DNA of 64,000 nucleotides from the NCBI RefSeq assembly GCF_055900595.2, contig NZ_CM148325.1; one strand, given 5' to 3'. Positions within the stretch are counted from its first letter, which is position 1. Every line of letters starts with the position of its first letter. The notes under the pieces are model-generated. The model did no database searches, had not been told where the DNA came from, and worked only from the letters and a program-made list of their open reading frames with translations. Shown here piece by piece: positions 1 to 62,587 of the stretch. The position numbers and the translations under genes are program-made.

Positions 1-126
1 CAGATATCTTGTCGCACCTGTTTTCGCTTCCAGTTGTCGTAACGTCTCGCGCCCGCTCTGTCGCACGAGTTCGACAACCTGCCTCTTAATTTTTTCCCGC
101 TCTTCCTGTGTAAATACTTTTTTCAC
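1..126 (-). CDS. Hypothetical phage protein, partial (3-prime end cut by window edge)
   Basis: GTG at 126 preceded by AGGAGG (131-136, minus strand); open to window edge; translation VKKVFTQEEREKIKRQVVELVRQSG... Confidence 0.35.
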   Translation of the reverse strand, partial: MKKVFTQEEREKIKRQVVELVRQSGRETLRQLEAKTGATRYL

Positions 127-155
127 AAGTCCTCCTGAAAAATCTCCTTCACAAT

Positions 156-821
156 TCATACAAAACCAGCCGCTTTCCGGCGTTCATACTCCTGTTTCAG
201 CAACTCAATTGGCGTTGGTCCCGACGGGCGTTTGGGGGCAGCCAGTTGTCGCCGGACTGGCGGAACGCTGAGGCCCATACCAACATGCTTTGACCATTTC
301 GTCAGTTGCCGTTCTGCAAACCGTTTTAACTCCCCTTCGGTCATCTGGCGTTCAATCCCCTTTGAACGCATCTCGAGGCATATGTGATACAGCACAGGCT
401 GAGACCACGGGTATTTATCGCTTCCGTCGTATCGCCAGGACTCATTGCGCCAGCGTCGGTACTCCTCCATCACAGCCCCCACCGTCAGACCGAATGGATT
501 GGCCCCGCTTTCCGGAATCAGTGCCACAAACTCAGCCAGGTCAGGAGGCCATGTTTCACCCGCCCGGCAGCGGTCCATGCACTGGCGGCAGACCTGCCGG
601 ATTTGCTGCTCAGTCATCGCGCCAATCTGTGCAATCCAGAGCTTCGAAGGTGCGGCCCCGTTCTTCCGGGTCCAGCGGTCCGAATAAACCTCCCCCATGA
701 GTTCCCACAGCTTCCAGGCTGTTTCCGTCGCTGATAAATCCGTTTTCACGTTCCCACTGCTCACGTGCTGCCCGAATTTCCTGAACTGCCCGTGATGCGG
801 TGCCACCTGGTGCTGCTGCAT
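156..821 (-). CDS. Replication protein P-like (DnaB helicase loader family)
   Basis: 221-aa ORF; C-terminal half resembles lambda P (YPW...LY...M motif region); AAGGGGG RBS before ATG at 821; alternative in-frame starts at 698 and 617. Confidence 0.55.
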   Translation of the reverse strand: MQQHQVAPHHGQFRKFGQHVSSGNVKTDLSATETAWKLWELMGEVYSDRWTRKNGAAPSKLWIAQIGAMTEQQIRQVCRQCMDRCRAGETWPPDLAEFVALIPESGANPFGLTVGAVMEEYRRWRNESWRYDGSDKYPWSQPVLYHICLEMRSKGIERQMTEGELKRFAERQLTKWSKHVGMGLSVPPVRRQLAAPKRPSGPTPIELLKQEYERRKAAGFV

Positions 822-1650
822 GGTTCACCCCCTTGCTGACTGGTTTAACCTGCGCCCTGACGTGATTTACGTGACGGGCGAATTTCTGCTCCCACTGAAC
901 CTGTGTGAACACTTTCCCCTCCGCCATCCAGTAATCCCGGAAGGCGGCAAGTTCAGCAGGTGTAAATTCCGGTTCCGGCAAAGCCGCTCCCCACAACGCA
1001 GCCCGCCGTCGAAAATCCAGCGACGGATGCCAGCCATCGGTCATCGGAAATTTTCCGATGGGTTCGCTCAGGCCATCCAGGAATACAGGGGGGGCTGCCT
1101 GTAACGACAAAACTTCCTGCTCACTGATCGGAGCACTCTCGCGTGTGTTATGTGTGGGGTTTAGATCTTTGGGTTCCTTTGGGTTCCGTGATCCGTTTTT
1201 GGGTGTCTTTGATGGAAAATTTGGGTGTTTTTGGTTATTTTCCATGCAGCTAAGAGTTCCGTTTTTGGGTCTGTTTTGTGCTGAAACATAACCATTTTCG
1301 GTACTGTTTTTATTAACAGCACCAATTTTACCCTCCTTTAAAGACTCCCGTTTTTGGGTGTATTCAGGCTCTGCAACGCTTTCTTCTACACCGATAAGTC
1401 GGTACACCACGATTTGCTTTGTTCGGCCTTTTCTCTCACCGGTATCAACAATTAACCCAATCTCCATCAGGTGTCGTAAGCTGTCCTGCACAGTCTTTTT
1501 GTTCAGTTCCGTTACTTCTGCCAGTGCAGATACAGACGGGTATGCACACAAATCGGCACCGCACATATCAGCAAGCCAGGTCAATACTGACTTACTGGAT
1601 GAACTGCCGGTTTTCACCTTTTTAGCCCATCGTAGTGCATCGATGCTCAT
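610..1650 (-). CDS. Replication initiator, O-like: N-terminal HTH, Lys/Asn/Pro-rich linker, C-terminal DnaT-like domain
   Basis: ATG at 1650 with AGGAG RBS; N-terminus MSIDALRWAKKV... HTH-like; C-terminus FTPAELAAFRDYWMAEGK resembles DnaT C-terminal domain; iterons lie inside the linker coding region. Confidence 0.65.
   Translation of the reverse strand: MSIDALRWAKKVKTGSSSSKSVLTWLADMCGADLCAYPSVSALAEVTELNKKTVQDSLRHLMEIGLIVDTGERKGRTKQIVVYRLIGVEESVAEPEYTQKRESLKEGKIGAVNKNSTENGYVSAQNRPKNGTLSCMENNQKHPNFPSKTPKNGSRNPKEPKDLNPTHNTRESAPISEQEVLSLQAAPPVFLDGLSEPIGKFPMTDGWHPSLDFRRRAALWGAALPEPEFTPAELAAFRDYWMAEGKVFTQVQWEQKFARHVNHVRAQVKPVSKGVNHAAAPGGTASRAVQEIRAAREQWERENGFISDGNSLEAVGTHGGGLFGPLDPEERGRTFEALDCTDWRDD
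1160..1365. repeat. Putative phage replication origin iterons (TTTGGGT-core repeats) followed by AT-rich stretch
   Basis: TTTGGGTTCC at 1168-1177 and 1178-1187; CCGTTTTTGGGTGT at 1193-1206 and 1349-1362; CCGTTTTTGGGTCT at 1259-1272; TTTGGGTGTTTTTGG at 1220-1234; AT-rich 1290-1345. Confidence 0.45.
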
Positions 1651-2173
1651 ACGAACTCCTGGCAGACATTTGTTTATCTGCAAAGTAATATTGATATTGC
1701 TGACGATACGCATGCTTGAAAGCAATAGCTTTTTCTATAAGCTCGTCAGTCTCACGTTCCACAACAGATGGATCCGCAAAAAGCAGCCCGGACTCCACCA
1801 CATCGCCATATTCTTTGTTTAACCCGGCGATCATGTACGTAATGCTTTTTCCGTCAGTAATTTCACAATACAACCTGAAATCGCTGATCCGGATAGCCTC
1901 CATAATTGCCGGAATCAGCGCCGTGAATTTTTCCCGCTTATCCCTGGTGTCGATAGCTTTCCAGCGTTCGAATATCTTCACCCGGTTAACGCCCAGCGCC
2001 CGTTGATCAACCTCGCCATCATTAAACGTGACGCGTTGAACATCGATGTTCGGGCGTTCTTTCAGAGCCCAGAATGCTTCCGTGATTAATATCGTCGCCT
2101 GCTCCTGTGTCATTCCTGGTCGGCATACCCAGGCATCCAGAGCCTCACAAACCTGTTCAGGGGTGATTTTCAT
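1622..2173 (-). CDS. YdaT-like protein (Rac prophage ydaT family), downstream of cro-like gene
   Basis: 183-aa ORF; N-terminus MKITPEQVCEALDAW resembles Rac YdaT; overlaps the cro-like stop and the O-like start. Confidence 0.5.
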   Translation of the reverse strand: MKITPEQVCEALDAWVCRPGMTQEQATILITEAFWALKERPNIDVQRVTFNDGEVDQRALGVNRVKIFERWKAIDTRDKREKFTALIPAIMEAIRISDFRLYCEITDGKSITYMIAGLNKEYGDVVESGLLFADPSVVERETDELIEKAIAFKHAYRQQYQYYFADKQMSARSSYEHRCTTMG

Positions 2174-2384
2174 TGTTCAACCGCCCCGCCCGCTTCGTCT
2201 TACGATATTCGTCATAAACTTTGGGGTCGTACTGAAGTTCCCCGCCAGATGCCTCTTGCAGGCGCATCGCGCGACCTTCAGGAACCAGTTCTCCCCATTG
2301 AGAAACAGCAGATGGATCAACACCAGCAGCTTTCGCTACTTTGGCTTTCGTCCCATAAAAATTAATTACGTCTGATTTAAACAT
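2157..2384 (-). CDS. Cro/YdaS-like HTH DNA-binding protein
   Basis: ATG at 2384 with GGAGGGG RBS; small HTH protein (AKVAKAAGVDPSAVSQW) divergent from the repressor gene. Confidence 0.6.
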   Translation of the reverse strand: MFKSDVINFYGTKAKVAKAAGVDPSAVSQWGELVPEGRAMRLQEASGGELQYDPKVYDEYRKTKRAGRLNNENHP

Positions 2385-2461
2385 CACCCCTCCAAAGTTG
2401 AGTTTTCTCAATGGTAATCACTCAAGGAATCTCAAGCCAAGGGTTATTAAGATATCTAAAT
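2385..2461. promoter_or_regulatory. Divergent immunity promoter/operator region (OR-like)
   Basis: 77-bp gap between divergent cro-like and CI-like starts; palindrome TTGAGTTTTCTCAA at 2398-2411 plus repeated CTCAAG half-sites at 2421-2436. Confidence 0.4.
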
Positions 2462-2869
2462 ATGAACGAGAAAACTTTAGGTCAACGAATTAGAGAAAGA
2501 CGCAAACAGGTTGGTTTAAGTCAAAACGATTTAAGCAAAGCTGCTGGCGTATCTGGCTCATCAATTTCACTATGGGAAAGCGACCATACAGCCCCGCGCG
2601 GGCAAAATTTGCATCGCCTGGCTGAGGTATTGCAATGTTCACCAACTTGGATACTGTTTGGTGACGAGGATAAAACACCAGATCCACCAGTTGCACTCAA
2701 CAGCGCCTTAGACTTATCGGAAGATGAGTTGGAGATGTTGCGATTGTATCGCGCACTTCCAAAATCAGAGCAGCAAGCACAAATCAGCGAACTCCGTGCC
2801 CGCGTTGAGAATTTTAATCGCCTATTCACCGAGCTACTAGAAGCTCGCAAACGTAACAAACATCAATAA
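2462..2869 (+). CDS. CI-like phage repressor, XRE-family HTH, no S24 peptidase domain
   Basis: HTH motif GLSQNDLSKAAGVSGSSISLWE; 135 aa; C-terminal helical region only; divergent from cro-like gene. Confidence 0.65.
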   Translation: MNEKTLGQRIRERRKQVGLSQNDLSKAAGVSGSSISLWESDHTAPRGQNLHRLAEVLQCSPTWILFGDEDKTPDPPVALNSALDLSEDELEMLRLYRALPKSEQQAQISELRARVENFNRLFTELLEARKRNKHQ

Positions 2870-2931
2870 CCCCCCTTCACAAATTTTAAAGCCTTACATT
2901 TCAATGTATTGGCTTTATTTTGCATTAAATA

Positions 2932-2982
2932 TTGAGTTTTCTAATCAAAACACTTGACCAATTTTCATGAGAAAACTAAATT
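2932..2982 (+). promoter_or_regulatory. Candidate PL-like promoter with operator (OL-like)
   Basis: TTGAGTTTTCT at 2932-2942 repeats the OR motif; -35 TTGACC 2954-2959, 17-bp spacer, -10 TAAATT 2977-2982; inverted repeat AGTTTTCT (2935-2942) / AGAAAACT (2970-2977). Confidence 0.35.
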
Positions 2983-3063
2983 ACCATCCATCAAGACACC
3001 GCACGGTGTTCTCAGCAAACAGTTCCGCTACCCCGGCGTTAAGGGGAAACAGAGGATTTCTCA

Positions 3064-3420
3064 GTGGGCGAAGTCAAACATCAGAATGGAAGGCATCCCG
3101 GGATCGGCAAAGAAGCAGCAATGGCGCTTTATATTGACATCAGCGCCATTGCCGGACAGGTAAGAATTATCAGAGCGGTAACTAAGCGGTATGTGCCTTT
3201 ACTTCAGAAAGGCTCCGGTGATTACACCGAAGATATTGTCAACGATTTCCTCATCGAATTGCGAGGACTCATCTTCAGTTACAAGGTGACCACAATTTTT
3301 GCAGATGGCTCCCGCGAAACTGTCAGAGCCCTGCGGCTTAAAGGATGTGTCGAAGACTTCGCCACCACATTCTGGGCAAGAAAACTTGATTGTATTCATA
3401 ACCAATTTCCTCTCGGGTAA
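3064..3420 (+). CDS. Hypothetical protein, first ORF downstream of candidate PL (N-gene position); mutually exclusive with the antisense ORF 3199-3399
   Basis: GTG start with AGAGGA RBS 7 nt upstream; 118 aa; orientation fits the rightward early operon; no recognisable family. Confidence 0.35.
   Translation: MGEVKHQNGRHPGIGKEAAMALYIDISAIAGQVRIIRAVTKRYVPLLQKGSGDYTEDIVNDFLIELRGLIFSYKVTTIFADGSRETVRALRLKGCVEDFATTFWARKLDCIHNQFPLG
3199..3399 (-). CDS. Small zinc-ribbon protein (CPECGG...CKNCGH), candidate moron; mutually exclusive with 3064-3420
   Basis: ATG at 3399 with AGAGGA RBS 8 nt upstream; two CxxC pairs 17 residues apart; 66 aa. Confidence 0.4.
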   Translation of the reverse strand: MNTIKFSCPECGGEVFDTSFKPQGSDSFAGAICKNCGHLVTEDESSQFDEEIVDNIFGVITGAFLK

Positions 3421-4016
3421 CAGACCCCTCAGAGGATACCACCTCGCCTGACGTGGTTAAAAGCAGGCACACAACACGAAAGCGCACGGCGAGGTAGCTG
3501 GTTCATATATAGCCTGTCGTTAAATTTTCGTCGACCGTGCGCTTCCGGTTGTGGCACTCCGCGAAATGGCGCGGCGGTAAGCATGGCGGGGTTCCCTTCC
3601 CCTTGAGGACACCGGGTTGTCAGGTTGACCATGCGCCTGAGTGACAACCCCGCTGCAACGCCCTCTGTTATCAATTTTCTGGTGACGTTTGGCGGTATCA
3701 GTTTTACTCCGTGACTGCTCTGCCGCCCTTTTTAAAGTGAATTTTGTGATGTGGTGAATGCGGCTCAGCGCACGCGGAACAGTTAAAACCAAAAACAGAG
3801 TTATGGGTGGATTCTCTGTATCCGGCGTTAATTGTTAACTGGTTAACGTCACCTGGAGGCACCTGGCACCGCATCAACAAAGTTCACTTCGGTGATGAAA
3901 GGTAAGAGAAAATGTTGAATGTAGCTATTGAAAACCAGTACGGGTGGAATTATAGTGCACCTGCACCTCATAAAACGGGTGCCGGGCGTGGAAACCCGAA
4001 AGTTACTCGAGCGCAT

Positions 4017-4039
4017 AACCGCGCCGAAGCGGTTTTTTT
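4017..4039 (+). terminator. Candidate rho-independent terminator upstream of the Rha gene
   Basis: AACCGC-GCCGAA-GCGGTT hairpin followed by TTTTT. Confidence 0.4.
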
Positions 4040-4208
4040 ATGCGTAATGCACAGCCACATTCAGATAATGGTGGGGCGTGCAGGGCAGCTGCAAGGCTGG
4101 CCGGGTTCTCGAGTGACCGGTATTTCCACCCCTGTACGTCTCGCCACCCTTATGGTCGTGGAAAGCCTCGGTGGTGAGTTAATTAACTTAACACTTGAGG
4201 ATGCCATC

Positions 4209-4760
4209 ATGGCTACTACCCTTACCCTTTCTCACCCTGACGTAACCATTGAAAATGGTCGCGCTGTCACTACGTCTATTGCGATCGCAGAATTCTTCGG
4301 CAAGCAGCATCACCATGTTGTTCAAAAAATAGAGGCCCTCGAATGTTCTGAACGCTTTTTAACCAGCAACTTTTCGCGGGTTAAATTCGAGCACCGTGGC
4401 AATACCTACAATGCCTACCAAATCACCAAAAACGGCTTCGTTTTCCTGGTGATGGGCTTCACCGGCAAAAAGGCCGCTGCATTCAAGGAAGCCTACATTG
4501 CCGAGTTCGACCGCATGGAGGAAGAACTGCGCCGGAATAACACCACACCCGCTGACAAAATAATCCCGGGTGATGGCCGCACCCTGGTTATCCGCTTCGA
4601 CGAACACGGCTACATCAAATTCACCGAAACCGTTCCTGATGGCGCACTGGTCTGTACTCTGGATACTTTCCGTTTTTATCTGGAAAAGCAGGGATGGACT
4701 CTCATAAACCGGGGCGCAATTAAAAATATGACCGTCGAGCAGTTGCTGAGTATTAAATAG
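4209..4760 (+). CDS. Phage regulatory protein, Rha family (antirepressor-like)
   Basis: N-terminus TTSIAIAEFFGKQHHHVVQKI matches Rha-domain signature; GAGGA RBS before ATG 4209; in-frame ORF is open upstream to 3912, so the start is uncertain. Confidence 0.6.
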   Translation: MATTLTLSHPDVTIENGRAVTTSIAIAEFFGKQHHHVVQKIEALECSERFLTSNFSRVKFEHRGNTYNAYQITKNGFVFLVMGFTGKKAAAFKEAYIAEFDRMEEELRRNNTTPADKIIPGDGRTLVIRFDEHGYIKFTETVPDGALVCTLDTFRFYLEKQGWTLINRGAIKNMTVEQLLSIK

Positions 4761-4805
4761 TTTTCTGGAATTTCCTTCATATCACAAATTATTAAGGAGA
4801 TTATT

Positions 4806-5027
4806 ATGATTGCTCATCACTTCGGAACCGATGAAATACCACGCCAGTGCGTCACTCCCGGCGATTACGTTATTTACGAAGGCCGGACATATGTTGCATC
4901 GGCAAACAATATCGAAAAGCAAAAACTTTATATCCGTGATTTCACTACAAAAACATGCATTACTGACCGCATGATTAAAGTCTTCCTCGGTCGTGATGGT
5001 TTACCTGTAAAGGCGGAGGCATGGTGA
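4806..5027 (+). CDS. Hypothetical small phage protein
   Basis: ATG preceded by AAGGAG at 7-nt spacing; 73 aa; no recognisable family. Confidence 0.55.
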
Positions 5028-5146
5028 GCTGTAATAAATAACTGACCCAATACGACATTCAGCTTAATAAATACATAAGGGTCGATTCTTATATGCCAGC
5101 AATGGCAGGGATTCGCACAACCTTAAAACAGCAATGAGGTTTATCA

Positions 5147-7600
5147 ATGAGCACTGATAAAGAAACTTTTGCGCTATATTGCGAAGCTAAAAATGACAAA
5201 GTCAGAAAACGCCTTGGGATTAAAGGTGGTTTTTACTGGACTACAGCAAAAAAATTATCTGTTGCCATCTCCCGCTGCATTACCGCAATGGATGATAACG
5301 ATTATGATGAAGACGACTTTAAAAAACCTGTTCGCGTCCATTTGCCCGTTGTTGATGACCTTCCACCGGAAGGCGTGTTTGATACCGAATTCTGTAACCG
5401 GTATGAAAAAGGCGGCGAAGATGGCATCACAATGATATTTATCGCGCCTCCGCCATCCGCGCAGGACAAACCAGCCAGCACTGACAACACCAATGTTAAT
5501 GGCGAAGACATGACTGAGATTGAGGAGAATATGCTTCTGCCGGTTTCAGGTCAGATTCTGCCTGTTCGCTGGCTGGCGCAACACAGCGGCGAAAAACCAG
5601 TAACGCACGTTTCGCGGGATGAACTGCGCTCATTACATAACGCACAGGAAGAAAAACTTCCCGCCGTTACCGCGCTGGCCATCTCAAATAAAGCAGCGCA
5701 ACTCGAACCGCTGGAGATTCGGGATTTGTACAAACTGGTGCGGGACACTGACAAAGTTTTTCCCGCCCCCGTAAATTCAGACCTGGGACTGATGACCTCC
5801 TTCATCGAAGCATACCTGGACGCTGACTACACTGATCGTGGTCTGCTTACAAAAGAGTGGATGAAAGGAAATCGTGTTTCTCGCATCAGTCGCACACCAT
5901 CCGGCGCTAACGCTGGCGGCGGTATTCTTACCGATCGCGGCGAAGGTTTTGTGCATGATAATGCGTCAATGGCATTCGATGTTGCTACAGGAAAACTGGC
6001 TCGTTCGATGGATGTGGATATTTACAACATGCATCCTTCACATACCAGACGTGTTAACGAAATTATCGCAGAAAATGATCCCTGTTTCTCCGTCTTCCTT
6101 AAGGCTTTTCTGAACATGCCAGGCGGGATGGATTATTCCCGCGCCATCGTGGTTGCCTCCGTGAAAGAAGCACCGGTTGGTATAGAGGCTATGCCCCACC
6201 GCGTCACCGAATACCTGAATAAAGTGCTGACCGAAACCGATCATGCCAACCCTGATCCGGAAATCGTGGATATTGCCTGCGGTCGTTCCTCTGCCCCAAT
6301 GCCGCAGCGTGTAACAGAAGAAGGAAAACAGGATGATGAAGAAAAACCGCAACCGTCTGGCGCAATGGCAGATGAACAGCCAACGACTGAAACAGTGGAA
6401 CCGGATACAACTGAACATCATCCGGACACGCAGCCGCTGGATGCTCAGCCGCAGGTGAATTCTGTTGATGCGAAATATCAGAAACTGCGGGCAGAACTCC
6501 ATGAATCCCGGAAAAACATTCCGCCCCAAAATCCTGTCGACGAAGACAAATTGCTGGCAACCTCTGGCGGAGAATTTGCTGAAGGGATTAGCGACCCGAA
6601 TGATCCGAAATGGGTGAAGGGGATTGAAACCCGCGATTCTGTGAACCAGAACCAGCAAGAATCGGAACAGAACGACCAGAAAGCGGAAAAAAACAGCCAA
6701 AATGCGTTACAAAACGAGCCAGAAACGAAACAATCCGAACCAGTAGCGCAACAGGAACCGGAAAAAGTCTGCACCATCTGCGGTCAGAGCGGTGTCGGCA
6801 ACTGTCCTGATTGTGGCGTGGTGATGGGCGACGCAACATACCAGGAAATGTTCGATGAAGATAATCAGCCTGAAGTTCAGGAAAATGATCCAGAGGAAAT
6901 GGAAGGCTCTGCGCATCAGAACAAGGAGAACTCTGGCGGCAATCAGCATCATGCCAGCGATAGTGAAACTGGCGAGACGGCAAATCCCTTAATTAAGATA
7001 ACCAGTCATCACAAATATAAGTCCACAAGCAAAACGTGGTATCACCTGATGATCGACCTTGAAACAATGGGAACCAACACCAATGCACCCATAGTAGTTA
7101 TTGGTGCGGTTTTCTTCGACCCGGAAACAGGGGAAATCGGGCCGGTATTTTATATCGTTATCAGCCTGACTGACGCAATGAATACAGGGGCTGTTCCTGA
7201 TGGTGGCACCATCGAATGGTGGCTGAAGCAGTCCAGCGAAGCCAGAGCTGCCATTTTAACTGACCAGGTAAAAATGAAAGATGCCCTTTTGCGTTTTCGG
7301 GAATTCGTCAATGAACACTCTGATGAAAAATTCGTTCAGGTGTGGGGTAATGGCGCAACGTTCGATAACGCAATTTTGCGCACCTCATACGAACGTCTGG
7401 ACATCCCCTGTCCGTGGCATTACAGCAACGATCGTGATGTACGCACAATCGTTGAGATGGGGAAAATCACAGACTTCAATGCCAGAAGCGTAATTCCATT
7501 CGAAGGCGTGCGCCATAATGCTCTGGATGACGCTCTTCACCAGGCAAAATACGTAACAGCCGCTATACAAAAACTGATCCCGAATCAGGCTGATTTTTAA
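5147..7600 (+). CDS. Exonuclease: RecE (exonuclease VIII) N-terminal-region homolog fused to a C-terminal DnaQ-like DEDDh 3-prime-5-prime exonuclease domain
   Basis: 817 aa; middle region ([19 protein letters not shown]...[43 protein letters not shown]) matches the RecE N-terminal part as recalled; C-terminus has [15 protein letters not shown] and HNALDDA motifs; acidic linker with CTICG-x7-CPDCG zinc-ribbon-like motif. Confidence 0.75.
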
Positions 7601-7664
7601 TGTTCAACCCCGGTCGTCGCCCACCGGCTATAGTGGCGGCGACCATGATTAGCGAACGACGCTC

Positions 7665-7913
7665 ATGGCAAGACTTATTCTGCTCACTGAGTGGGCAAAA
7701 GAGGAATTCAGTGAACCGGTCCCTAGTCCGGGTACGTTAAGTAAATACGCTAAAGCCGGAATGATATTTCCTCTCCCCAAAAAAGTAGGAAGGCACTGGC
7801 GAGTGGATCCACGCGCTCGCTTTGTCGGAATGGTAAACAAGCCGGAGGTGATCGCCACAGATCACCCTGCTTTGAAGAGGATACTGGAAGATGGCGCGCC
7901 CGCGAAAATATAA
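7665..7913 (+). CDS. xis: Excisionase (lambda Xis-like)
   Basis: 82-aa ORF overlapping the int start; LTEW...IFPLPKKVGRHWRV resembles lambda Xis. Confidence 0.55.
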   Translation: MARLILLTEWAKEEFSEPVPSPGTLSKYAKAGMIFPLPKKVGRHWRVDPRARFVGMVNKPEVIATDHPALKRILEDGAPAKI

Positions 7914-9021
7914 AACCGATGTTCCGGGTTTATCTCCGTATTTTGACAAAAGAAATAACAAAGTTTACTGGCGTTACAGGCATCCCATCACAGGTAAAAA
8001 TCATGGACTCGGCAGTATTGACCAGAAACTGGCGGAAACCATTGCAGCAGAAGCGAACAGCCGTCTTGCCAGACAACAAATGGAGCAAATGCTCAGTCTG
8101 CAGGAGAAAATTATTAGTGATACCGGCGGCGCATCAACCGTTTCCATTTTTCTGAATAATTACAGAAAAATTCAACAGGAAAGATATGAGAACGGAGAGA
8201 TCAAACTCAGCACGCTGAAGCAAAAAGCGGCTCCTCTCAGGGTGTTTGATGAACGTTTTGGAGCCAGGCCGCTAGATGCCATAACCGTAAAAGATGTGGT
8301 ATCGGTGCTGGAAGAATACAAGGCAAAGGGACATAACAGAATGGGACAAATTTTCAGGAAGGTATTGATCGATGTTTTCCGGGAGGCTCAACAAACGGGT
8401 GATGTTCCGCCAGGCTTTAACCCGGCTGAATCGGCAAAAAAACCGCAAGTGCGGATATCAAGACAGCGACTGACTTTTGATGAGTGGATGATGATTTATA
8501 ACGCAGCGGAAAAGGATGGTTACTTTTTACAGCGCGGCATGCTGCTGGCACTGATGACGGGCCAGCGTCTTTCGGATATTTGCAAAATGCAGTTTTCGGA
8601 TATCCGGGATGGTTACCTTCATGTCGAACAGCAAAAAACAGGAGCCCGGATAGCCATTCCTCTGGCTCTGCGTTGCGACAAATTAAATCTTACCCTGGGT
8701 GACGTGGTGTCATCCTGTCGTGATTACATCCTTAGTCCGTGGTTATTGCACCATCATCACGCTAAGGGGATGGGTAAGCGCGGCGGGATGGTTAAACCAG
8801 CAACATTAACAGTCGCATTTAAAAAAGCCCGGGATTCTGTGGATTACAACTGGCGTGCTAATGGCACGCCACCCTCTTTCCATGAGCAAAGATCTTTATC
8901 AGAACGATTGTTCAGAGAACAGGGAATTGATACCAAAATTTTGCTGGGCCATTCGAATCAAAAAATGACCGATATTTACAACGACGCACGCGGTAAAGAG
9001 TGGAAAAAACTGGTTATTTGA
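7891..9021 (+). CDS. int: Tyrosine recombinase, lambda-family integrase
   Basis: 376 aa; conserved R...HxxR...Y catalytic region (GQRLSDICKMQFSDI, FHEQRSLSERLF, LLGHSNQKMTDIY) similar to lambda Int. Confidence 0.85.
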   Translation: MARPRKYKTDVPGLSPYFDKRNNKVYWRYRHPITGKNHGLGSIDQKLAETIAAEANSRLARQQMEQMLSLQEKIISDTGGASTVSIFLNNYRKIQQERYENGEIKLSTLKQKAAPLRVFDERFGARPLDAITVKDVVSVLEEYKAKGHNRMGQIFRKVLIDVFREAQQTGDVPPGFNPAESAKKPQVRISRQRLTFDEWMMIYNAAEKDGYFLQRGMLLALMTGQRLSDICKMQFSDIRDGYLHVEQQKTGARIAIPLALRCDKLNLTLGDVVSSCRDYILSPWLLHHHHAKGMGKRGGMVKPATLTVAFKKARDSVDYNWRANGTPPSFHEQRSLSERLFREQGIDTKILLGHSNQKMTDIYNDARGKEWKKLVI

Positions 9022-9066: not shown

Positions 9067-9705
9067 TTAGAAGCGGTATCCGGCAGAGAACATAAACACC
9101 CACGGATCCAGTCGTACCGCGTCTTTCACGGGGGTTCCATTAAATTTATAGCTGGCGGTGGTGTCGATATCCATGTACCAGACTGACATGTTCACCAACC
9201 AGTCACGGTTAATCAGATAATCAACCCCCACCTGCCCGGCAGCTCCCCAGGAGTCTTTCAGACTGAGATCGGAAAGTCCCGCCTCTTTGCCATGATCGTT
9301 GAATCCATTATCAAAGAAGGTGGTGTAGTTAATACCTGCCCCAACGTAAGGACGGAATTTGCTGCTGGCATCACCAAAATACCACTGCGCCATCAGTGTT
9401 GGCGGCAGATGATGAACGGTTGCAATATCGCCGGTCGCCCGGGTGCCGATTTTATGGCGGAACGGCGTCGCTGCCAGCAATTCCACACCAATGTTATCGG
9501 TCGCCATATAAGTAAACGTCAGGCCCAGTTGCGTGTTATTGGTCACGCTGAATCCACCCAGACTTCCTAACGTACCACCAGCACCTTCTGTTGGACGTAC
9601 GGTTGCAGAACCTGCACGCATAAAAAATTCGCCTGCTTCATGCGCAAAGGCACTGCCAGAGAGAAGAGTTGTTACTGCCAAAGCCGCCACTGTTAACTTT
9701 TTCAT
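9067..9705 (-). CDS. ompW: Outer membrane protein W
   Basis: 212-aa product from MKKLTVAALAVTTLLSGSAFA signal peptide; GGAG RBS before ATG 9705. Confidence 0.9.
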   Translation of the reverse strand: MKKLTVAALAVTTLLSGSAFAHEAGEFFMRAGSATVRPTEGAGGTLGSLGGFSVTNNTQLGLTFTYMATDNIGVELLAATPFRHKIGTRATGDIATVHHLPPTLMAQWYFGDASSKFRPYVGAGINYTTFFDNGFNDHGKEAGLSDLSLKDSWGAAGQVGVDYLINRDWLVNMSVWYMDIDTTASYKFNGTPVKDAVRLDPWVFMFSAGYRF

Positions 9706-24403: not shown

Positions 24404-27079
24404 ATGGCTGTTACTAATGTCGCTGAACTTAACGCACTCGTAGAGCGTGTAAAAAAAGCCCAGCGTGAATATGCCAGTTTCACTCAAGAGCAAGTAGACA
24501 AAATCTTCCGCGCCGCCGCCCTGGCAGCTGCAGATGCTCGAATCCCACTCGCGAAAATGGCCGTTGCCGAATCCGGCATGGGTATCGTCGAAGATAAAGT
24601 AATCAAAAACCACTTTGCTTCTGAATATATCTACAACGCCTATAAAGATGAAAAAACCTGTGGTGTTCTGTCTGAAGACGACACTTTTGGTACCATCACT
24701 ATCGCTGAACCAATCGGTATTATTTGCGGTATCGTTCCGACTACTAACCCGACTTCAACGGCTATCTTCAAATCGCTGATCAGCCTGAAGACCCGTAACG
24801 CCATTATCTTCTCCCCGCACCCGCGTGCAAAAGATGCAACCAACAAAGCTGCAGATATTGTTCTGCAGGCTGCTATCGCTGCTGGTGCGCCGAAAGACCT
24901 GATTGGCTGGATCGATCAACCTTCTGTTGAACTGTCTAACGCGCTGATGCACCACCCAGACATCAACCTGATCCTCGCGACCGGTGGTCCGGGTATGGTT
25001 AAAGCCGCATACAGCTCCGGTAAACCAGCTATCGGCGTAGGCGCGGGTAACACTCCAGTCGTTATCGATGAAACTGCTGATATCAAACGTGCAGTTGCAT
25101 CTGTACTGATGTCTAAAACCTTCGACAACGGCGTAATCTGTGCTTCTGAACAATCTGTTGTTGTAGTTGACTCTGTTTATGACGCGGTACGTGAGCGTTT
25201 CGCTACCCACGGCGGTTACATACTGCAGGGCAAAGAGCTGAAAGCAGTTCAGGACGTTATCCTGAAAAACGGCGCACTGAACGCAGCTATCGTTGGTCAG
25301 CCAGCCTATAAAATTGCTGAACTGGCAGGCTTCTCTGTACCAGAAAATACCAAGATTCTGATCGGTGAAGTGACCGTTGTTGATGAAAGCGAACCGTTCG
25401 CACATGAAAAACTGTCCCCGACTCTGGCAATGTACCGTGCTAAAGATTTCGAAGACGCGGTAGAAAAAGCAGAGAAACTGGTTGCTATGGGCGGCATCGG
25501 TCATACCTCTTGCCTGTACACTGACCAGGATAACCAACCGGCTCGCGTTGCCTACTTCGGTCAGAAAATGAAAACGGCCCGTATTCTGATCAACACCCCG
25601 GCGTCTCAGGGTGGTATCGGTGACCTGTATAACTTCAAACTCGCACCTTCCCTGACTCTGGGTTGTGGTTCCTGGGGTGGTAACTCCATCTCTGAAAACG
25701 TTGGTCCGAAACACCTGATCAACAAGAAAACCGTTGCTAAGCGAGCTGAAAACATGTTGTGGCACAAACTTCCGAAATCTATCTACTTCCGCCGTGGCTC
25801 TCTGCCAATCGCGCTGGATGAAGTGATTACTGATGGCCACAAACGTGCGCTCATCGTGACTGACCGCTTCCTGTTCAACAATGGTTATGCTGATCAGATC
25901 ACTTCCGTACTGAAAGCAGCAGGCGTTGAAACTGAAGTCTTCTTCGAAGTAGAAGCTGACCCGACCCTGAGCATCGTTCGTAAAGGTGCAGAACTGGCAA
26001 ACTCCTTCAAACCAGACGTGATTATCGCGCTGGGTGGTGGTTCCCCGATGGATGCCGCGAAGATCATGTGGGTCATGTACGAGCATCCAGAAACTCACTT
26101 CGAAGAACTGGCGCTGCGCTTTATGGATATCCGTAAACGTATCTACAAGTTCCCGAAAATGGGCGTGAAAGCGAAAATGATCGCTGTCACCACCACTTCT
26201 GGTACAGGTTCTGAAGTCACTCCGTTTGCGGTTGTAACTGACGACGCTACTGGTCAGAAATATCCGCTGGCAGACTATGCGCTGACCCCGGATATGGCGA
26301 TTGTCGATGCCAACCTGGTTATGGACATGCCGAAGTCCCTGTGTGCTTTCGGTGGTCTGGACGCAGTAACTCACGCCATGGAAGCTTATGTTTCTGTACT
26401 GGCATCTGAGTTCTCTGATGGTCAGGCACTGCAGGCACTGAAACTGCTGAAAGAATATCTGCCAGCGTCCTACCACGAAGGATCTAAAAATCCGGTAGCG
26501 CGTGAACGTGTTCACAGTGCAGCAACTATCGCTGGTATCGCGTTTGCGAACGCCTTCCTGGGTGTATGTCACTCAATGGCGCACAAACTGGGTTCCCAGT
26601 TCCATATTCCGCACGGTCTGGCAAACGCCCTGCTGATTTGTAACGTTATTCGCTACAACGCGAATGACAACCCGACCAAGCAGACTGCATTCAGCCAGTA
26701 TGACCGTCCGCAGGCTCGCCGTCGTTATGCTGAAATTGCTGACCACCTGGGTCTGAGCGCACCGGGCGACCGTACTGCTGCTAAGATCGAGAAACTGCTG
26801 GCATGGCTGGAAACGCTGAAAGCTGAACTGGGTATTCCGAAATCTATCCGTGAAGCTGGCGTTCAGGAAGCAGACTTCCTGGCGAATGTGGATAAACTGT
26901 CTGAAGATGCATTCGATGACCAGTGCACCGGCGCTAACCCGCGTTACCCACTGATCTCCGAGCTGAAACAGATTCTGCTGGATACCTACTACGGTCGTGA
27001 TTATGTAGAAGGTGAAACTGTAGCGAAAAAAGAAGCCGCTCCGGCTAAAGCTGAGAAAAAAGCGAAGAAATCCGCTTAA
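24404..27079 (+). CDS. adhE: Bifunctional aldehyde/alcohol dehydrogenase AdhE
   Basis: 891 aa; N-terminal aldehyde dehydrogenase and C-terminal iron-type alcohol dehydrogenase domains. Confidence 0.97.
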
Positions 27080-27104
27080 TAAGTAGCACTGTCTGGCAAC
27101 ATAA

Positions 27105-27130
27105 ACGGTCCCTTCTGGGGCCGTTTTTTT
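27105..27130 (+). terminator. adhE rho-independent terminator
   Basis: GC-rich hairpin (GGTCCCTTCTGGGGCC) followed by TTTTTTT. Confidence 0.6.
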
Positions 27131-27381
27131 GTTTTACCCAAAGCAACTTTCCCATAAACCGACAGCATTTGCCTTCATCATATTTACGGCGATGTATAAC
27201 GCCTACACACAGCGATATTGTACTTTACGGGTCACAAGTCAACGTCACTGTAAAAGCGATCTGTGAGGGGTATAGTGGCGTTAAAGAACTGTCGAGAAGG
27301 GTATATACACCGGATGAAGTGCGTAAAATGAACTGACAGGATAAAAGCGCTCTGCTCACCCTGTCAGTAAAGAAATTCTTA

Positions 27382-27999
27382 TTAATCGTGGCGATGCCTT
27401 TCCTGAATAGCCGTTAATGAGCCGACTTCTAACGCCTCTTTATAGTGTTTGCGGCATACAGAAACGTAGCGTTCATTACCACCAATAACCACCTGCTCAC
27501 CTTCGTTATAAGGTCTGCCTGCTTGATCAAGACGCAGCACCATGCTTGCTTTACGGCCACAAAAACAGATGGTTTTTAATTCAACCAGTTTGTCGGACCA
27601 TGCCAGTAAGTATTGGCTGCCAACAAATAATTCACCTCGAAAATCGGTACGTAAACCATAACAAAGTACGGGTATATCGAGTTGATCTACAACCTCCGAT
27701 AATTCATATACTTGTTGTCTGGTTAAAAACTGGCATTCATCAACCAGTACGCAATGAATTGCCTGCTGTTCATGTTCCGCACGAATCTCATCAAATAATG
27801 ATGAATTTTGGTTAAATAATTTTGCAGGCGATGACAAACCTATACGCGAGCTGACTTTCCCGGCACCAAAGCGATCATCAATTTCTGCCGTATATACGAC
27901 AGTGCGCATGCCGCGTTCCTGGTAATTGTATGAAGATTGCAACAATGCTGTAGACTTACCCGCATTCATTGCGGAATAGTAGAAATATAGCTGTGCCAT
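27382..27999 (-). CDS. tdk: Thymidine kinase
   Basis: 205 aa, P-loop MNAGKST, matches Tdk. Confidence 0.95.
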
Positions 28000-33903: not shown

Positions 33904-33988
<85 letters not shown>

Positions 33989-34022
33989 TCTCAAGCATTA
34001 CATCAAAATTTGAATTATCCCT

Positions 34023-34107
<85 letters not shown>

Positions 34108-34463
34108 TCACTTTCAAAAGTTCCTGAAATCCCCAACAAATCCACAATTAAATATTCTGCCCATGCGGGGAAGGATGAGAAGCTTCGACTAAGGTTCGAC
34201 TCGAGCGCCAGCGAGAGAGCGTTGCCGCAGGCAACGACCCGTAGGGCGAAGCGCGCAGCGCTGAGTAATCCTTCCCCCACCACCATCACTTTCAAAAACC
34301 CCTGTATTCTCCAACGAATCCGTAACTGAATATTCTGCCCATGCGGGGAAGGATGAGAAGCTTCGACTAAGGTTCGACTCGAGCGCCAGCGAGAGAGCAT
34401 TGCCGCAGGCAACGACCCGTAGGGCGAAGCGCGCAGCGCTGAGTAATCCTTCCCCACCACCAT
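34108..34463 (+). repeat. Two tandem 178-bp repeat units downstream of the tRNA-Tyr genes (rtT / tpr region)
   Basis: Near-identical units at 34108-34285 and 34286-34463, each ending in the tRNA 3-prime-end-like AATCCTTCCCCCACCACCA. Confidence 0.7.
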
Positions 34464-34630
34464 CACACCCTTAAATACTCAAAACCTGTTACTTCAAGCT
34501 AATTTGCCCCGTGGCACCGCGTTTACCGGACCTACAATATCCTCCCCTGTAGGTCAGATAAGCGAATCACTCCGCACCGTGCCCATAAAAAAACCCCGCC
34601 GAAGCAGGGTCTATGTGAACTAAAATTCGC

Positions 34631-47789: not shown

Positions 47790-47833
47790 TGTTTGAGGGG
47801 GGCGTCTGACGCCCCACTATGAGGGAAGTTTAC

Positions 47834-48529
47834 TCAGGCGAATCCCGGCCGTAACACACCATCCGGATAATTCTCCGCCAGCAGTTTTTTTACCGATACC
47901 AGCAAATCATTCAGCCCATCGTCCTGCATTCCCAGTTTGATAAGCTCCTGTTCCAGTGAAAACAGGTATTGTGCGTTGGTTCCCAGTGGACCGCTCGCCG
48001 CCGCAATCAACGGCGCGATGACCTGAGCGCGAGTGTCAGATTCATATTCTGGATGTCGCGGGTCCATAATAAACACAATGGCGTTTACTGTGCGTCCATC
48101 ATCAAGATCAAGCTGACACCAGGTTGGCAGATAACAGCCGGTAATCATCTCGCGCTTCCACAACAGGGTTAGTTCCTGCTCCAGCGTCTCTTCTGGCAGT
48201 CGATAGGCGACGCCTGTGGTGCGTCCGCCCTCTTTCAGTGCAAGCATCCGTCCCGGCTGGTGCGCAGTCCCGCGCCCGGCGGTCAGGCGCAGGCAAAACG
48301 CGCGATGCCATCCAACCAGTGTACCAGTGCACGACTCGGTAAACTCCAGTGCCGGATTCCACATCAACGATCCATAACCGAAGATCCACACCGGTCCCTC
48401 ATCAGGTCGACAAGCCAGCGTCGCCGCCAGCTAAGCCGCCCGTTGCTCTGCTGACCATAAGAGTGATTCTTCAATGGCACCAAATGCCGTTTTACAATCG
48501 GCATTCATCAAGAAATCACGCGTTATCAC
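47834..48529 (-). pseudogene. chaC: chaC (glutathione-specific gamma-glutamylcyclotransferase) interrupted by an in-frame amber stop at codon 33
   Basis: Minus-strand reading frame from GTG 48529 (MITRDFLMNADCKTAFGAIEESLLWSAEQRAA) hits TAG at 48433-48431, then continues in frame (LAATLACRPDEGPVWIFGYGSL...) to the stop at 47834; plus strand reads CTAAGC at 48431-48436. Confidence 0.75.
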
Positions 48530-48685
48530 CTTACACCTCCGCCACTGCATACTTCCCTGCGACAACTTTTTGGTGTCTTCCGGACATTTTACTGCTCATT
48601 TTGAAACCATTAACGGGACAATATGCAATCCACGGACCACTTGCAAGGCAACACCGCACGAATAGCTTTAACTAAGCTACCGGTT

Positions 48686-50691: not shown

Positions 50692-50799
50692 ATGACGCTC
50701 GCGCAGTTTGCCATGATTTTCTGGCACGACCTGGCGGCACCGATCCTGGCGGGGATTATTACCGCAGTGATTGTCAGCTGGTGGCGTAACCGGAAGTAA
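50692..50799 (+). CDS. ldr: Ldr type I toxin peptide, 35 aa
   Basis: MTLAQFAMIFWHDLAAPILAGIITAVIVSWWRNRK; terminator hairpin GCCGCAGG-GGTAACAG-CCTGCGGC plus T-run at about 50850-50883. Confidence 0.85.
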   Translation: MTLAQFAMIFWHDLAAPILAGIITAVIVSWWRNRK

Positions 50800-51226: not shown

Positions 51227-51334
51227 ATGACGCTCGCGCAGTTTGCCATGACTTTCTGGCACGACCTGGCAGCACCGATCCTGGCGGGAATTATTACCGC
51301 AGCGATTGTCAGCTGGTGGCGTAACCGGAAGTAA
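51227..51334 (+). CDS. ldr: Ldr type I toxin peptide, 35 aa
   Basis: MTLAQFAMTFWHDLAAPILAGIITAAIVSWWRNRK; followed by terminator hairpin plus T-run. Confidence 0.85.
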   Translation: MTLAQFAMTFWHDLAAPILAGIITAAIVSWWRNRK

Positions 51335-53200: not shown

Positions 53201-53593
53201 TTACCCCAGTAACGGTACTTTTGTGGTGGCGAGTTTAATGATGATGTACAGCACCACCAACGCCAGCGGGAAGGCAATAATGCGCGCCTGCTGACTGTGC
53301 ATACGACGATAATCGAGTGCAATAAAACCCAAAACGATATAAATGATAACTCCAAACAGCTTTTCAGTCAGCCACTGTGCCTGCCCGGAAAATGGCAGGA
53401 TGTGCGCTTTAGCCATCAACGCAATGCCGCTTAACAATAACACCGTATCGACAACCGGCGGCACAATGCGCGTCCAACGAGCAAATGCCTGTGGATGCTT
53501 CTGATAACGTAGCCAGAAACGTAAGGTTAATAGCCCTACAGAAAGCGCAATGCTAATGAGATGAACGCTAAGCAGTGTAGAAAAACTTGTCAT
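53201..53593 (-). CDS. ychQ: Inner membrane protein YchQ (SirB2)
   Basis: 130-aa membrane protein matching YchQ. Confidence 0.85.
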   Translation of the reverse strand: MTSFSTLLSVHLISIALSVGLLTLRFWLRYQKHPQAFARWTRIVPPVVDTVLLLSGIALMAKAHILPFSGQAQWLTEKLFGVIIYIVLGFIALDYRRMHSQQARIIAFPLALVVLYIIIKLATTKVPLLG

Positions 53594-54423
53594 TGATAAT
53601 AGCGGCCGAGCGTTACGCGCTCGTTATCACCATAGTCCCGACAGGTTTCGACGTCATGATATCCCGCGTGGATAAATGCCTGTCGCACCGCTTCGCCCTG
53701 CTGCCAGCCATGTTCCAGAAGCAGAAAGCCGCCGGATACCAGCGCGTTACGCGACTGTTCGATGATATGCACGATGTCTGCCATTCCACTGTCTGCCGCA
53801 ACCAGCGCAGTGAGCGGCTCAAAGCGGACATCGCCTTGTTGAAGATGTGGATCCTGCTCGTCAATATACGGCGGATTGCTGACAATCATCGCAAACTGCT
53901 GCCCGGCTAGCGCGCTAAACCAGTCGCTTTGCAGAATATGGATATTTTTGATCGCCAGATGCTGGGCATTACGTTGTGCCAGAGAGACAGCATCTGGCAT
54001 ACGATCTACAGCGGTAATTTCACAGTCCGGGCGCTCGCTAGCCAGCGCCAGCGCAATCGCCCCGGTACCCGTCCCGAGATCGAGAATACGGCAAGGCTGT
54101 TCAGGCAACCGCGCCAGTGCCTGCTCCACCAGACACTCCGTATCCGGGCGCGGAATTAAGGTCGCTGGCGAAACAAATAACGGCAGCGACCAGAATTCTC
54201 GCACCCCGGTTAAATGAGCAATAGGTTCACCATCGCGACGACGCGTCAGTAGCGCATCAAGTTGCTGACATTGTTCGTCAGTCAGCTGCGTTTCACCAAA
54301 GGCGAGAATAAAAGTACGCCCTTTGCCGGTAACATGCTCCAGCAGGATTTCAGCATCACGCCGCGGGCTTTCGCTCGCCTGAAGTTGGCTTATTGCTTCA
54401 CGTAACCAGTGTTGATATTCCAT
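53590..54423 (-). CDS. prmC: Release factor glutamine methyltransferase PrmC (HemK)
   Basis: 277 aa with NPPY motif (IVSNPPYI). Confidence 0.95.
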   Translation of the reverse strand: MEYQHWLREAISQLQASESPRRDAEILLEHVTGKGRTFILAFGETQLTDEQCQQLDALLTRRRDGEPIAHLTGVREFWSLPLFVSPATLIPRPDTECLVEQALARLPEQPCRILDLGTGTGAIALALASERPDCEITAVDRMPDAVSLAQRNAQHLAIKNIHILQSDWFSALAGQQFAMIVSNPPYIDEQDPHLQQGDVRFEPLTALVAADSGMADIVHIIEQSRNALVSGGFLLLEHGWQQGEAVRQAFIHAGYHDVETCRDYGDNERVTLGRYYQ

Positions 54424-55505
54424 TATTCCTGCTCGGACAACGCCGCCAGTTGATCGGCCTGATGTTCCTGGATAATCGGTTCAATCAGCATATCCAGCTT
54501 ACCTTCCATCACTTCATCCAGACGGTAGAGCGTCAGGTTGATGCGGTGATCGGTAACGCGCCCCTGCGGGAAATTGTAAGTACGGTTACGGTCGCTGCGA
54601 TCGCCACTCCCCAGCAGGTTACGACGGGTAGACGCTTCGGCCTGTTGCCGTTTTGCCATTTCTGCAGCGTGGATGCGAGCACCAAGTACAGAAAGTGCTT
54701 TAGCTTTGTTTTTATGTTGTGAACGTTCGTCCTGACATTCAACAACAATCCCGGTCGGCAAGTGGGTAATACGGATTGCCGAATCGGTGGTGTTAACGTG
54801 CTGACCACCAGCTCCTGAAGAGCGGAAAGTATCAATGCGCAAATCTGCTGGGTTGATGTCCGGCAGTTCTGCGTCAGGCAGTTCTGGCATTACCGCAACG
54901 GTACAAGCAGAAGTATGAATTCGACCCTGCGATTCCGTAGCAGGCACACGCTGCACGCGATGACCGCCAGATTCGAATTTCAAACGACCATATACACCAT
55001 CACCGCTAATTTTGGCGATGATCTCTTTATAGCCACCATGTTCACCCTCGCTGGCGCTCATGATTTCTACACGCCAGCGGCGGGCTTCGGCGTAACGGCT
55101 GTACATACGGAACAGATCGCCAGCGAAGAGCGCCGCTTCGTCGCCGCCGGTTCCGGCACGGACTTCGAGGAAGGCGTTACGTTCGTCATCAGGATCTTTT
55201 GGTAGTAACAGAACCTGTAATTGCTGTTCCAGTTGCTCGCTTTTTTCTTTAGCTTCGCGCAGTTCATCCTGCGCCATCTCACGCATTTCAGGATCGTCGA
55301 GCATCATCTGTGCGGTTTCGATATCTTCCTGAACCTGTTGCCAGTCGGTAAAACAGCGCGAAACATCACTTAACTGCGCATATTCGCGTGATAATGCGCG
55401 AAAACGTTCCTGGTCGGCGATAGTTTGCGCGTCACCTAGCAACGCCTGAACTTCTTCATGGCGTTCATGCAGGGCTTCCAGTTTGGCAACGATAGAAGGC
55501 TTCAT
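54423..55505 (-). CDS. prfA: Peptide chain release factor 1
   Basis: 360 aa with GGQ motif ([14 protein letters not shown]). Confidence 0.97.
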
Positions 55506-62002: not shown

Positions 62003-62587
62003 GTGACGATTAAATTGATTGTCGGCCTGGCGAACCCCGGCGCTGAATACGCCGCAACGCGACATAATGCTGGTGCCTGGTTCGTTGACTTACTGGCAGA
62101 GCGATTGCGCGCTCCGCTGCGCGAAGAGGCTAAATTCTTTGGTTATACTTCGCGAGTCACCCTTGGAGGCGAAGATGTCCGCCTGTTAGTCCCGACTACA
62201 TTTATGAATCTCAGCGGCAAAGCCGTTGCGGCGATGGCCAGTTTTTTCCGCATTAATCCGGACGAGATTCTGGTGGCCCACGACGAACTGGATCTGCCTC
62301 CTGGCGTCGCCAAATTTAAGTTGGGCGGTGGCCATGGTGGTCACAATGGACTGAAAGACATCATCAGTAAATTGGGTAATAACCCTAACTTTCACCGTTT
62401 ACGCATCGGAATCGGTCATCCGGGCGATAAAAATAAAGTTGTCGGTTTTGTGTTAGGCAAACCGCCTGTTAGTGAACAGAAGTTAATTGATGAAGCCATC
62501 GACGAAGCGGCACGTTGTACTGAAATGTGGTTTACAGAGGGCTTGACCAAAGCAACGAACCGATTGCACGCCTTTAAAGCGCAATAA
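62003..62587 (+). CDS. pth: Peptidyl-tRNA hydrolase
   Basis: 194 aa matching Pth. Confidence 0.95.

Follow-up and report, generated by a model that had tools for sequence, protein, structure and literature searches.

An inherited amber codon in chaC of a small Escherichia lineage probably marks a young pseudogene or severe hypomorph

The chaC gene in the stretch of DNA analysed here (64,000 nucleotides of contig NZ_CM148325.1, referred to as the window) is interrupted at codon 33 by an in-frame amber codon. We consider it likely that a recent, inherited nonsense mutation has left the gene a young pseudogene or, at most, a severe hypomorph. One C>A transversion changed the invariant Ser33 codon TCG to amber in the ancestor of what is now a small Escherichia lineage, whose members have inherited it. 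Any ribosome that starts at the native GTG would be released by RF1 after 32 codons, so that no full-length ChaC, the glutathione-specific gamma-glutamylcyclotransferase, would be produced; from the sequence, we infer a loss of chaC function in the carriers. Amber chaC is an ordinary lineage-specific nonsense allele, an instance of a well-known kind.

The whole chaC reading frame lies on the minus strand (47834..48529) and, as established by translation and tblastn, comprises 231 codons and TGA, broken at codon 33. Translation from the GTG at 48529 gave 32 sense codons (VITRDFLMNADCKTAFGAIEESLLWSAEQRAA), then TAG, and then continued in frame with LAATLACRPDEGPVWIFGYGSL... to the normal chaC stop, TGA at 47836-47834. 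The amber codon (48431..48433, minus strand) was identified by this translation and by comparison with relatives carrying TCG: the lesion is C>A on the coding strand at chaC nucleotide 98 (C98A, window position 48432), which turns TCG (Ser) into TAG, and the base after the amber codon is C (UAG-C). An earlier note, made from the letters of the window, had reported the in-frame amber at 48433-48431, and all of its coordinates proved right; the serine that it gave for this position in the reference was also borne out by TCG in the complete E. coli genomes most similar to the window. The native initiation region (48527..48540, minus strand) consists of a GGAGG Shine-Dalgarno (SD) sequence at 48540-48536 and the GTG start at 48529-48527, and the 32 codons read from this start (MITRDFLMNADCKTAFGAIEESLLWSAEQRAA; 48434..48529, minus strand) encode a portion of a conserved N-terminal extension. 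The window gene occupies the same locus in the same synteny as E. coli chaC, and tblastn with the reference ChaC aligned residues 1-230 at 99.6% protein identity with one stop; PGAP gives chaC over the same span in relatives. Enterobacterales ChaC homologues with the N-terminal extension are 223-235 amino acids long, but the window chaC lacks a full-length frame of this size (about 225-235 aa): with TAG at codon 33, normal decoding cannot give the 231-aa protein.

The part of the gene after the stop encodes the complete catalytic domain. The Ser33 form of the protein matches the Pfam ChaC family (PF04752) with residues 47-215 corresponding to model positions 1-175 of 176 (E = 4.8e-57). This span lies entirely after the stop and is encoded uninterrupted in the window, within a post-stop ORF of 185 codons (47834..48391, minus strand) delimited by the ORF list, the Pfam match and the alignment to PDB 6K95; the intact catalytic ORF claimed from the GTG at 48391 is therefore real. 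Residue 1 of human ChaC2 (PDB 6K95, 184 aa; MWVFGYGSL) aligns to residue 47 of E. coli ChaC (VWIFGYGSL). Since both the ChaC2 and the Pfam alignments begin at residue 47, the amber codon falls within a 46-residue N-terminal extension that is absent from the eukaryotic minimal enzyme. Human ChaC2 is natively 184 aa long, is active and has been crystallised, and its single Met is at the N-terminus (PMC7022552). Tyr6, Gly7 and Ser8, the equivalents of the YGS motif, are strictly conserved in GGCT enzymes, and Glu83 is the conserved catalytic residue of human ChaC2 (PMC7022552). The codons for Tyr52-Gly53-Ser54 of the YGSL motif (48368..48376, minus strand) and for Glu127, which aligns with Glu83 (48149..48151, minus strand), are intact in the window and invariant in 18 genera. 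The window sequence thus has Y52-G53-S54-L55 and E127, the residues that characterise the ChaC family, and like the ChaC-family gamma-glutamylcyclotransferases (PF04752; human ChaC2, 6K95; yeast Gcg1, PDB 5HWI) it encodes the domain together with its YGS motif and catalytic Glu.

The N-terminal extension matches the catalytic core in conservation. Across 18 aligned Enterobacterales genera, which range from Escherichia to Erwinia, Pantoea and Cronobacter, the 46 N-terminal positions included 21 invariant ones, among them Ser33, and the conservation opened at residues 2-7 (M[LI]TRDFL). Ser33 and the 20 other invariant residues among the first 46 indicate that the regions on both sides of the stop are normally translated and under selection. 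A misannotated start, with the true start 3' of the stop, is ruled out by the same conservation; the possibility raised in the earlier note, that reference ChaC proteins start downstream of the stop, did not hold either, the reference being annotated from the upstream GTG. An AlphaFold2 model of full-length ChaC, used for secondary structure only (pLDDT 69.5, moderate), has helices at residues 4-9, 12-16 and 27-39 and the first core strand at 48-51; at this moderate confidence, Ser33 is within the best-predicted helix. We found no characterisation of the 46-residue extension in PMC7022552 or in the preprint 10.64898/2026.05.15.725350.

To determine the ancestral codon, we compared the locus with complete E. 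coli genomes. A 1,001-bp query around chaC matched 5,419 of 5,426 genomes, all of them annotated chaA / chaB / chaC / ychN / ychO. The closest, R32_14_1F, differed from the window over the 1,001 bp at two positions only: TCG>TAG at codon 33 and the synonymous change ACC>ACT at Thr68 (C204T, window position 48326, minus-strand gene), which accompanies the amber allele in every carrier. In R32_14_1F and in strain 042, PGAP gives a chaC of 696 nt and 231 aa with the same GTG start. The codon itself was counted with a 55-mer carrying the SNP at position 28, so that each 28-base megablast seed spans the SNP. This search gave the Ser codon TCG in 5,414 and TAG in none of the 5,426 complete E. coli genomes. 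The zero count is not a technical artefact, because the same design recovered the sole complete genome with another chaC nonsense allele. The amber allele was also not found among 100,044 species-representative genomes or in JGI metagenome contigs. The stop therefore stands where the orthologues and the inferred ancestor have a sense codon, TCG being ancestral and Ser33 invariant, as is expected of a nonsense pseudogene.

The two-SNP allele (C98A and C204T) was nevertheless present, in identical form, in at least five assemblies besides the window: AP025754.1 (Escherichia sp. KS167_9B), GCA_958310195.1 (with 12 further similar places), GCA_974490495.1, GCA_965255895.1 and GCA_965264245.1. These five carriers had at least 99.9% identity to the window over 3.5-6.5 kb and were 1-3 SNPs or an indel apart from it; judged by these differences, they and the window's genome represent separate strains within one lineage. 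A protein identical to the 185-aa product of GTG47 is deposited as BDI50646.1 (Escherichia sp. KS167_9B), and hundreds of contigs have records of the exact ATG56 product of 176 aa. Four short metagenome scaffolds have the same 185-aa ORF without the TAG, and their 5' ends are unrelated or N-gapped. A search of a literature library for strain KS167_9B found no paper. Over 24 kb (window 38000-62000), the best identity to any of the 5,426 complete E. coli genomes was 98.7%, and one carrier, KS167_9B, is deposited as an unclassified Escherichia sp.; the amber lineage may be peripheral to the main E. coli phylogroups or fall outside them.

No carrier had a further lesion in the post-stop ORF. The lesion-free ORF in all carriers would count against a pseudogene, but the allele is too young for this to have weight: the carriers' chaC sequences are all identical, differing from the nearest wild type at 2 positions, and therefore have no power to detect relaxed constraint.

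Two features would make a nonsense allele of chaC tolerable: ChaC is dispensable, no phenotype being reported for a chaC deletion, and chaC comes last in the chaB-chaC unit, with no downstream polarity. The locus has the same synteny as the reference (chaA / chaB-chaC / ychN), and chaC is followed by the convergent ychN, so that no downstream gene is open to polarity. Salt stress induces chaBC. The genes chaB and chaC are at least partly co-transcribed, deletion of chaC in E. coli leaves glutathione content and salt tolerance unchanged, and glutathione in E. coli is lowered only when ChaC is overexpressed (preprint 10.64898/2026.05.15.725350). The neighbours chaA and chaB, described as intact in the earlier note, are indeed both full length (99.2% and 100% identical to the reference, respectively). 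Between the convergent chaC and ychN there is a G+C-rich inverted repeat, GGGGCGT-CAG-ACGCCCC (47797-47815), which is probably a terminator hairpin shared by the two genes; it was not flagged by a consensus terminator scan because it has no T tract. On the other side of the locus, two tandem Ldr-family type I toxin genes (50692-50796 and 51227-51331) separate chaA from kdsA, an arrangement shared with the reference.

The alternative that survives best is termination followed by reinitiation: after release at UAG33, the ribosome or the 30S subunit would restart at GTG47 (48391) and make a predicted 185-residue active enzyme, fMet-WIFGYGSL..., with the N-terminal peptide fMet/Met-WIFGYGSLMWNPALEFTESCTGTLVGWHR, so that the gene would be shortened but not dead. 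Such a restart is plausible mechanistically and would give a complete catalytic domain, yet we regard it as an unlikely account of the allele. The in-frame starts after the stop are GTG47 (39 nt on), TTG55 (63 nt), ATG56 (66 nt) and ATG95, and the candidate restart site just downstream of the stop (48389..48400, minus strand; from the sequence and the SD duplex energy) combines an SD-like GAGGG at 48400-48396 with the GTG of codon 47 at 48391-48389. GTG47 is the first of these starts and is preceded, at a 5-nt spacing, by GAGG (predicted SD:anti-SD duplex, -6.1 kcal/mol). The first residue of the product predicted from it would coincide with position 1 of the Pfam ChaC model and residue 1 of ChaC2, and the product would have the YGS motif and Glu127 intact. 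Several annotations instead choose the ATG of codon 56 (48362..48364, minus strand; SD duplex -3.1 kcal/mol), whose 176-aa product would be without the substrate-binding motif Tyr52-Gly53-Ser54.

Translational restarts after early amber mutations are established in lacI and T4 rIIB. Like chaC, these systems have an early amber codon and an in-frame GUG with an SD-like sequence within tens of nucleotides; they are, however, laboratory mutants with restart proteins, whereas amber chaC is a natural allele with a candidate restart site. Moreover, the SD at GTG47 is much weaker than at the native start (GGAGG, -13.3 kcal/mol), and the mRNA around GTG47 folds more strongly (predicted -20.6 kcal/mol, against -14.0 kcal/mol at the native start). 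The SD-like GAGGG is found in wild-type alleles too, which means that the restart SD did not evolve for restart. Finally, the 46 residues that would be lost are conserved like the catalytic core in Enterobacterales, which suggests that they have a role in folding, stability or regulation in the Enterobacterales ChaC subfamily. The usable GTG47 with its SD-like element, from which a product with the complete ChaC domain could be made, is nevertheless the reason why some activity may remain in what we consider a young pseudogene or severe hypomorph.

A more far-reaching form of the restart, in which the amber codon turns chaC through reinitiation at GTG47 into a minimal ChaC2-like enzyme without the Enterobacterales-specific N-terminal module, appears very doubtful. 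A separate 32-residue N-terminal peptide might then be made alongside. Such a conversion would be a natural experiment on the role of the conserved N-terminal extension and, if the module is regulatory, the control of glutathione turnover would be altered in the amber lineage.

Even less probable is that useful amounts of full-length ChaC are restored by decoding of UAG, either by a suppressor tRNA encoded elsewhere or by near-cognate read-through; we regard this as highly unlikely. In E. coli, UAG-C terminates comparatively weakly, so that read-through at the per-cent level or lower is expected; basal read-through would supply no more than traces of the protein. The termination machinery encoded in the window also speaks against this explanation: prfA (RF1) is 100% identical to the reference, which rules out a defective RF1. 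The prmC product is 99.3% identical (2 substitutions) and that of pth 97.9%, a divergence exceeded in the set only by OmpW (96.2%). The three genes prfA, prmC and pth share the window with the amber allele (53593-55505 and 62003-62584). The sole tRNA genes in the window are the two tRNA-Tyr genes of the supF locus, tyrT and tyrV. Each has the wild-type anticodon GTA, which rules out a supF suppressor in the window; no tRNA with a CUA anticodon was found in the window, its prophage end included. The check for suppressor tRNAs covered the window; a suppressor may be encoded in the rest of the genome, where glnV lies. Efficient amber suppressors are rare among natural isolates. A pyrrolysine-type recoding of UAG was set aside, having no known precedent in Enterobacteriaceae and no hint in the window. 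The two tRNA-Tyr (GTA) genes are 34 nt apart and are followed by 2.1 copies of a 178-nt rtT repeat (window 33904-34466); in RMDEC465, the closest complete genome, four RtT copies are annotated.

The idea that the amber codon is a sequencing or assembly error over a true TCG, for which there is the absence of the allele from the 5,426 complete E. coli genomes and otherwise only the general possibility of error, has practically no probability left, being effectively refuted by the occurrence of the same allele with its linked synonymous SNP in at least five assemblies that are not identical to the window (and, to judge by their differing SNP counts relative to it, probably not to one another), and running against about 50 other window genes without a frameshift or stop. 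For the latter comparison, we translated the CDSs annotated for the syntenic region in E. coli RMDEC465 and searched them against the window with tblastn: about 50 genes from ompW to ychF were full length, with no gaps or stops, and chaC was the sole exception, by its stop. No IS elements were detected in the window between 9 and 64 kb; together with the full-length genes, this rules out Shigella-like gene decay as well as a poor assembly. The IS4 located between adhE and tdk in RMDEC465 is missing from the window (27076-27385).

Early lesions of chaC have also arisen independently in other E. coli backgrounds. The look-up that had revealed the S33* carriers favoured lesions before codon 56 (compare window 48364-48529) and therefore gives no rate; it also found the nonsense alleles S22* (C65A, in two backgrounds), W25* (G75A), R41* (C121T) and S54* (C161A) and a +1 frameshift after nt 54. 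Of the five nonsense changes, S33* included, three replace C by A in a Ser codon. S54* was present in 1 and S22* in none of the 5,426 complete E. coli genomes. Scattered, individually rare lesions of this kind are to be expected when a non-essential gene is sampled from many genomes. S54*, as found in E. coli 2012C-4221 (NZ_CP027437.1), resembles S33* in being a single-base early nonsense change in an otherwise intact locus, but it destroys the YGS motif, whereas S33* is upstream of the catalytic domain and leaves the full domain ORF and a start codon.

The annotation of these alleles is not uniform. Early-stop chaC is annotated in three ways: as a 185-aa CDS from GTG47 (BDI50646.1), as a 176-aa CDS from ATG56, and as a pseudogene. 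The S33* allele itself appears as the 185-aa and the 176-aa CDS, and the pseudogene label comes from the comparable S54* allele of NZ_CP027437.1, which PGAP marks as pseudo with 'internal stop'. The six loci that represent the S22*, W25*, R41*, S54* and frameshift alleles were all annotated with the 176-aa CDS from ATG56. As a consequence, comparative gene-content studies will score chaC inconsistently. S33* is thus already in public records under inconsistent annotation and, in a dispensable gene, is of small importance by itself; its carrier strains are a ready-made test of the conserved N-terminal module and of the catalytic domain alone.

At its other end, the window begins with the end of a lambdoid prophage (1-9021) that adjoins ompW (9070-9705); in the reference strain, this place is taken by yciE, yciF, yciG and the trp operon. 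PHROG matches identified the prophage integrase (7891-9021), a RecE-like exonuclease (5147-7600) and a CI-like repressor (2411-2869), as well as a Rha/anti-repressor-like regulator, a CII-like activator and O-like and P-like replication proteins.
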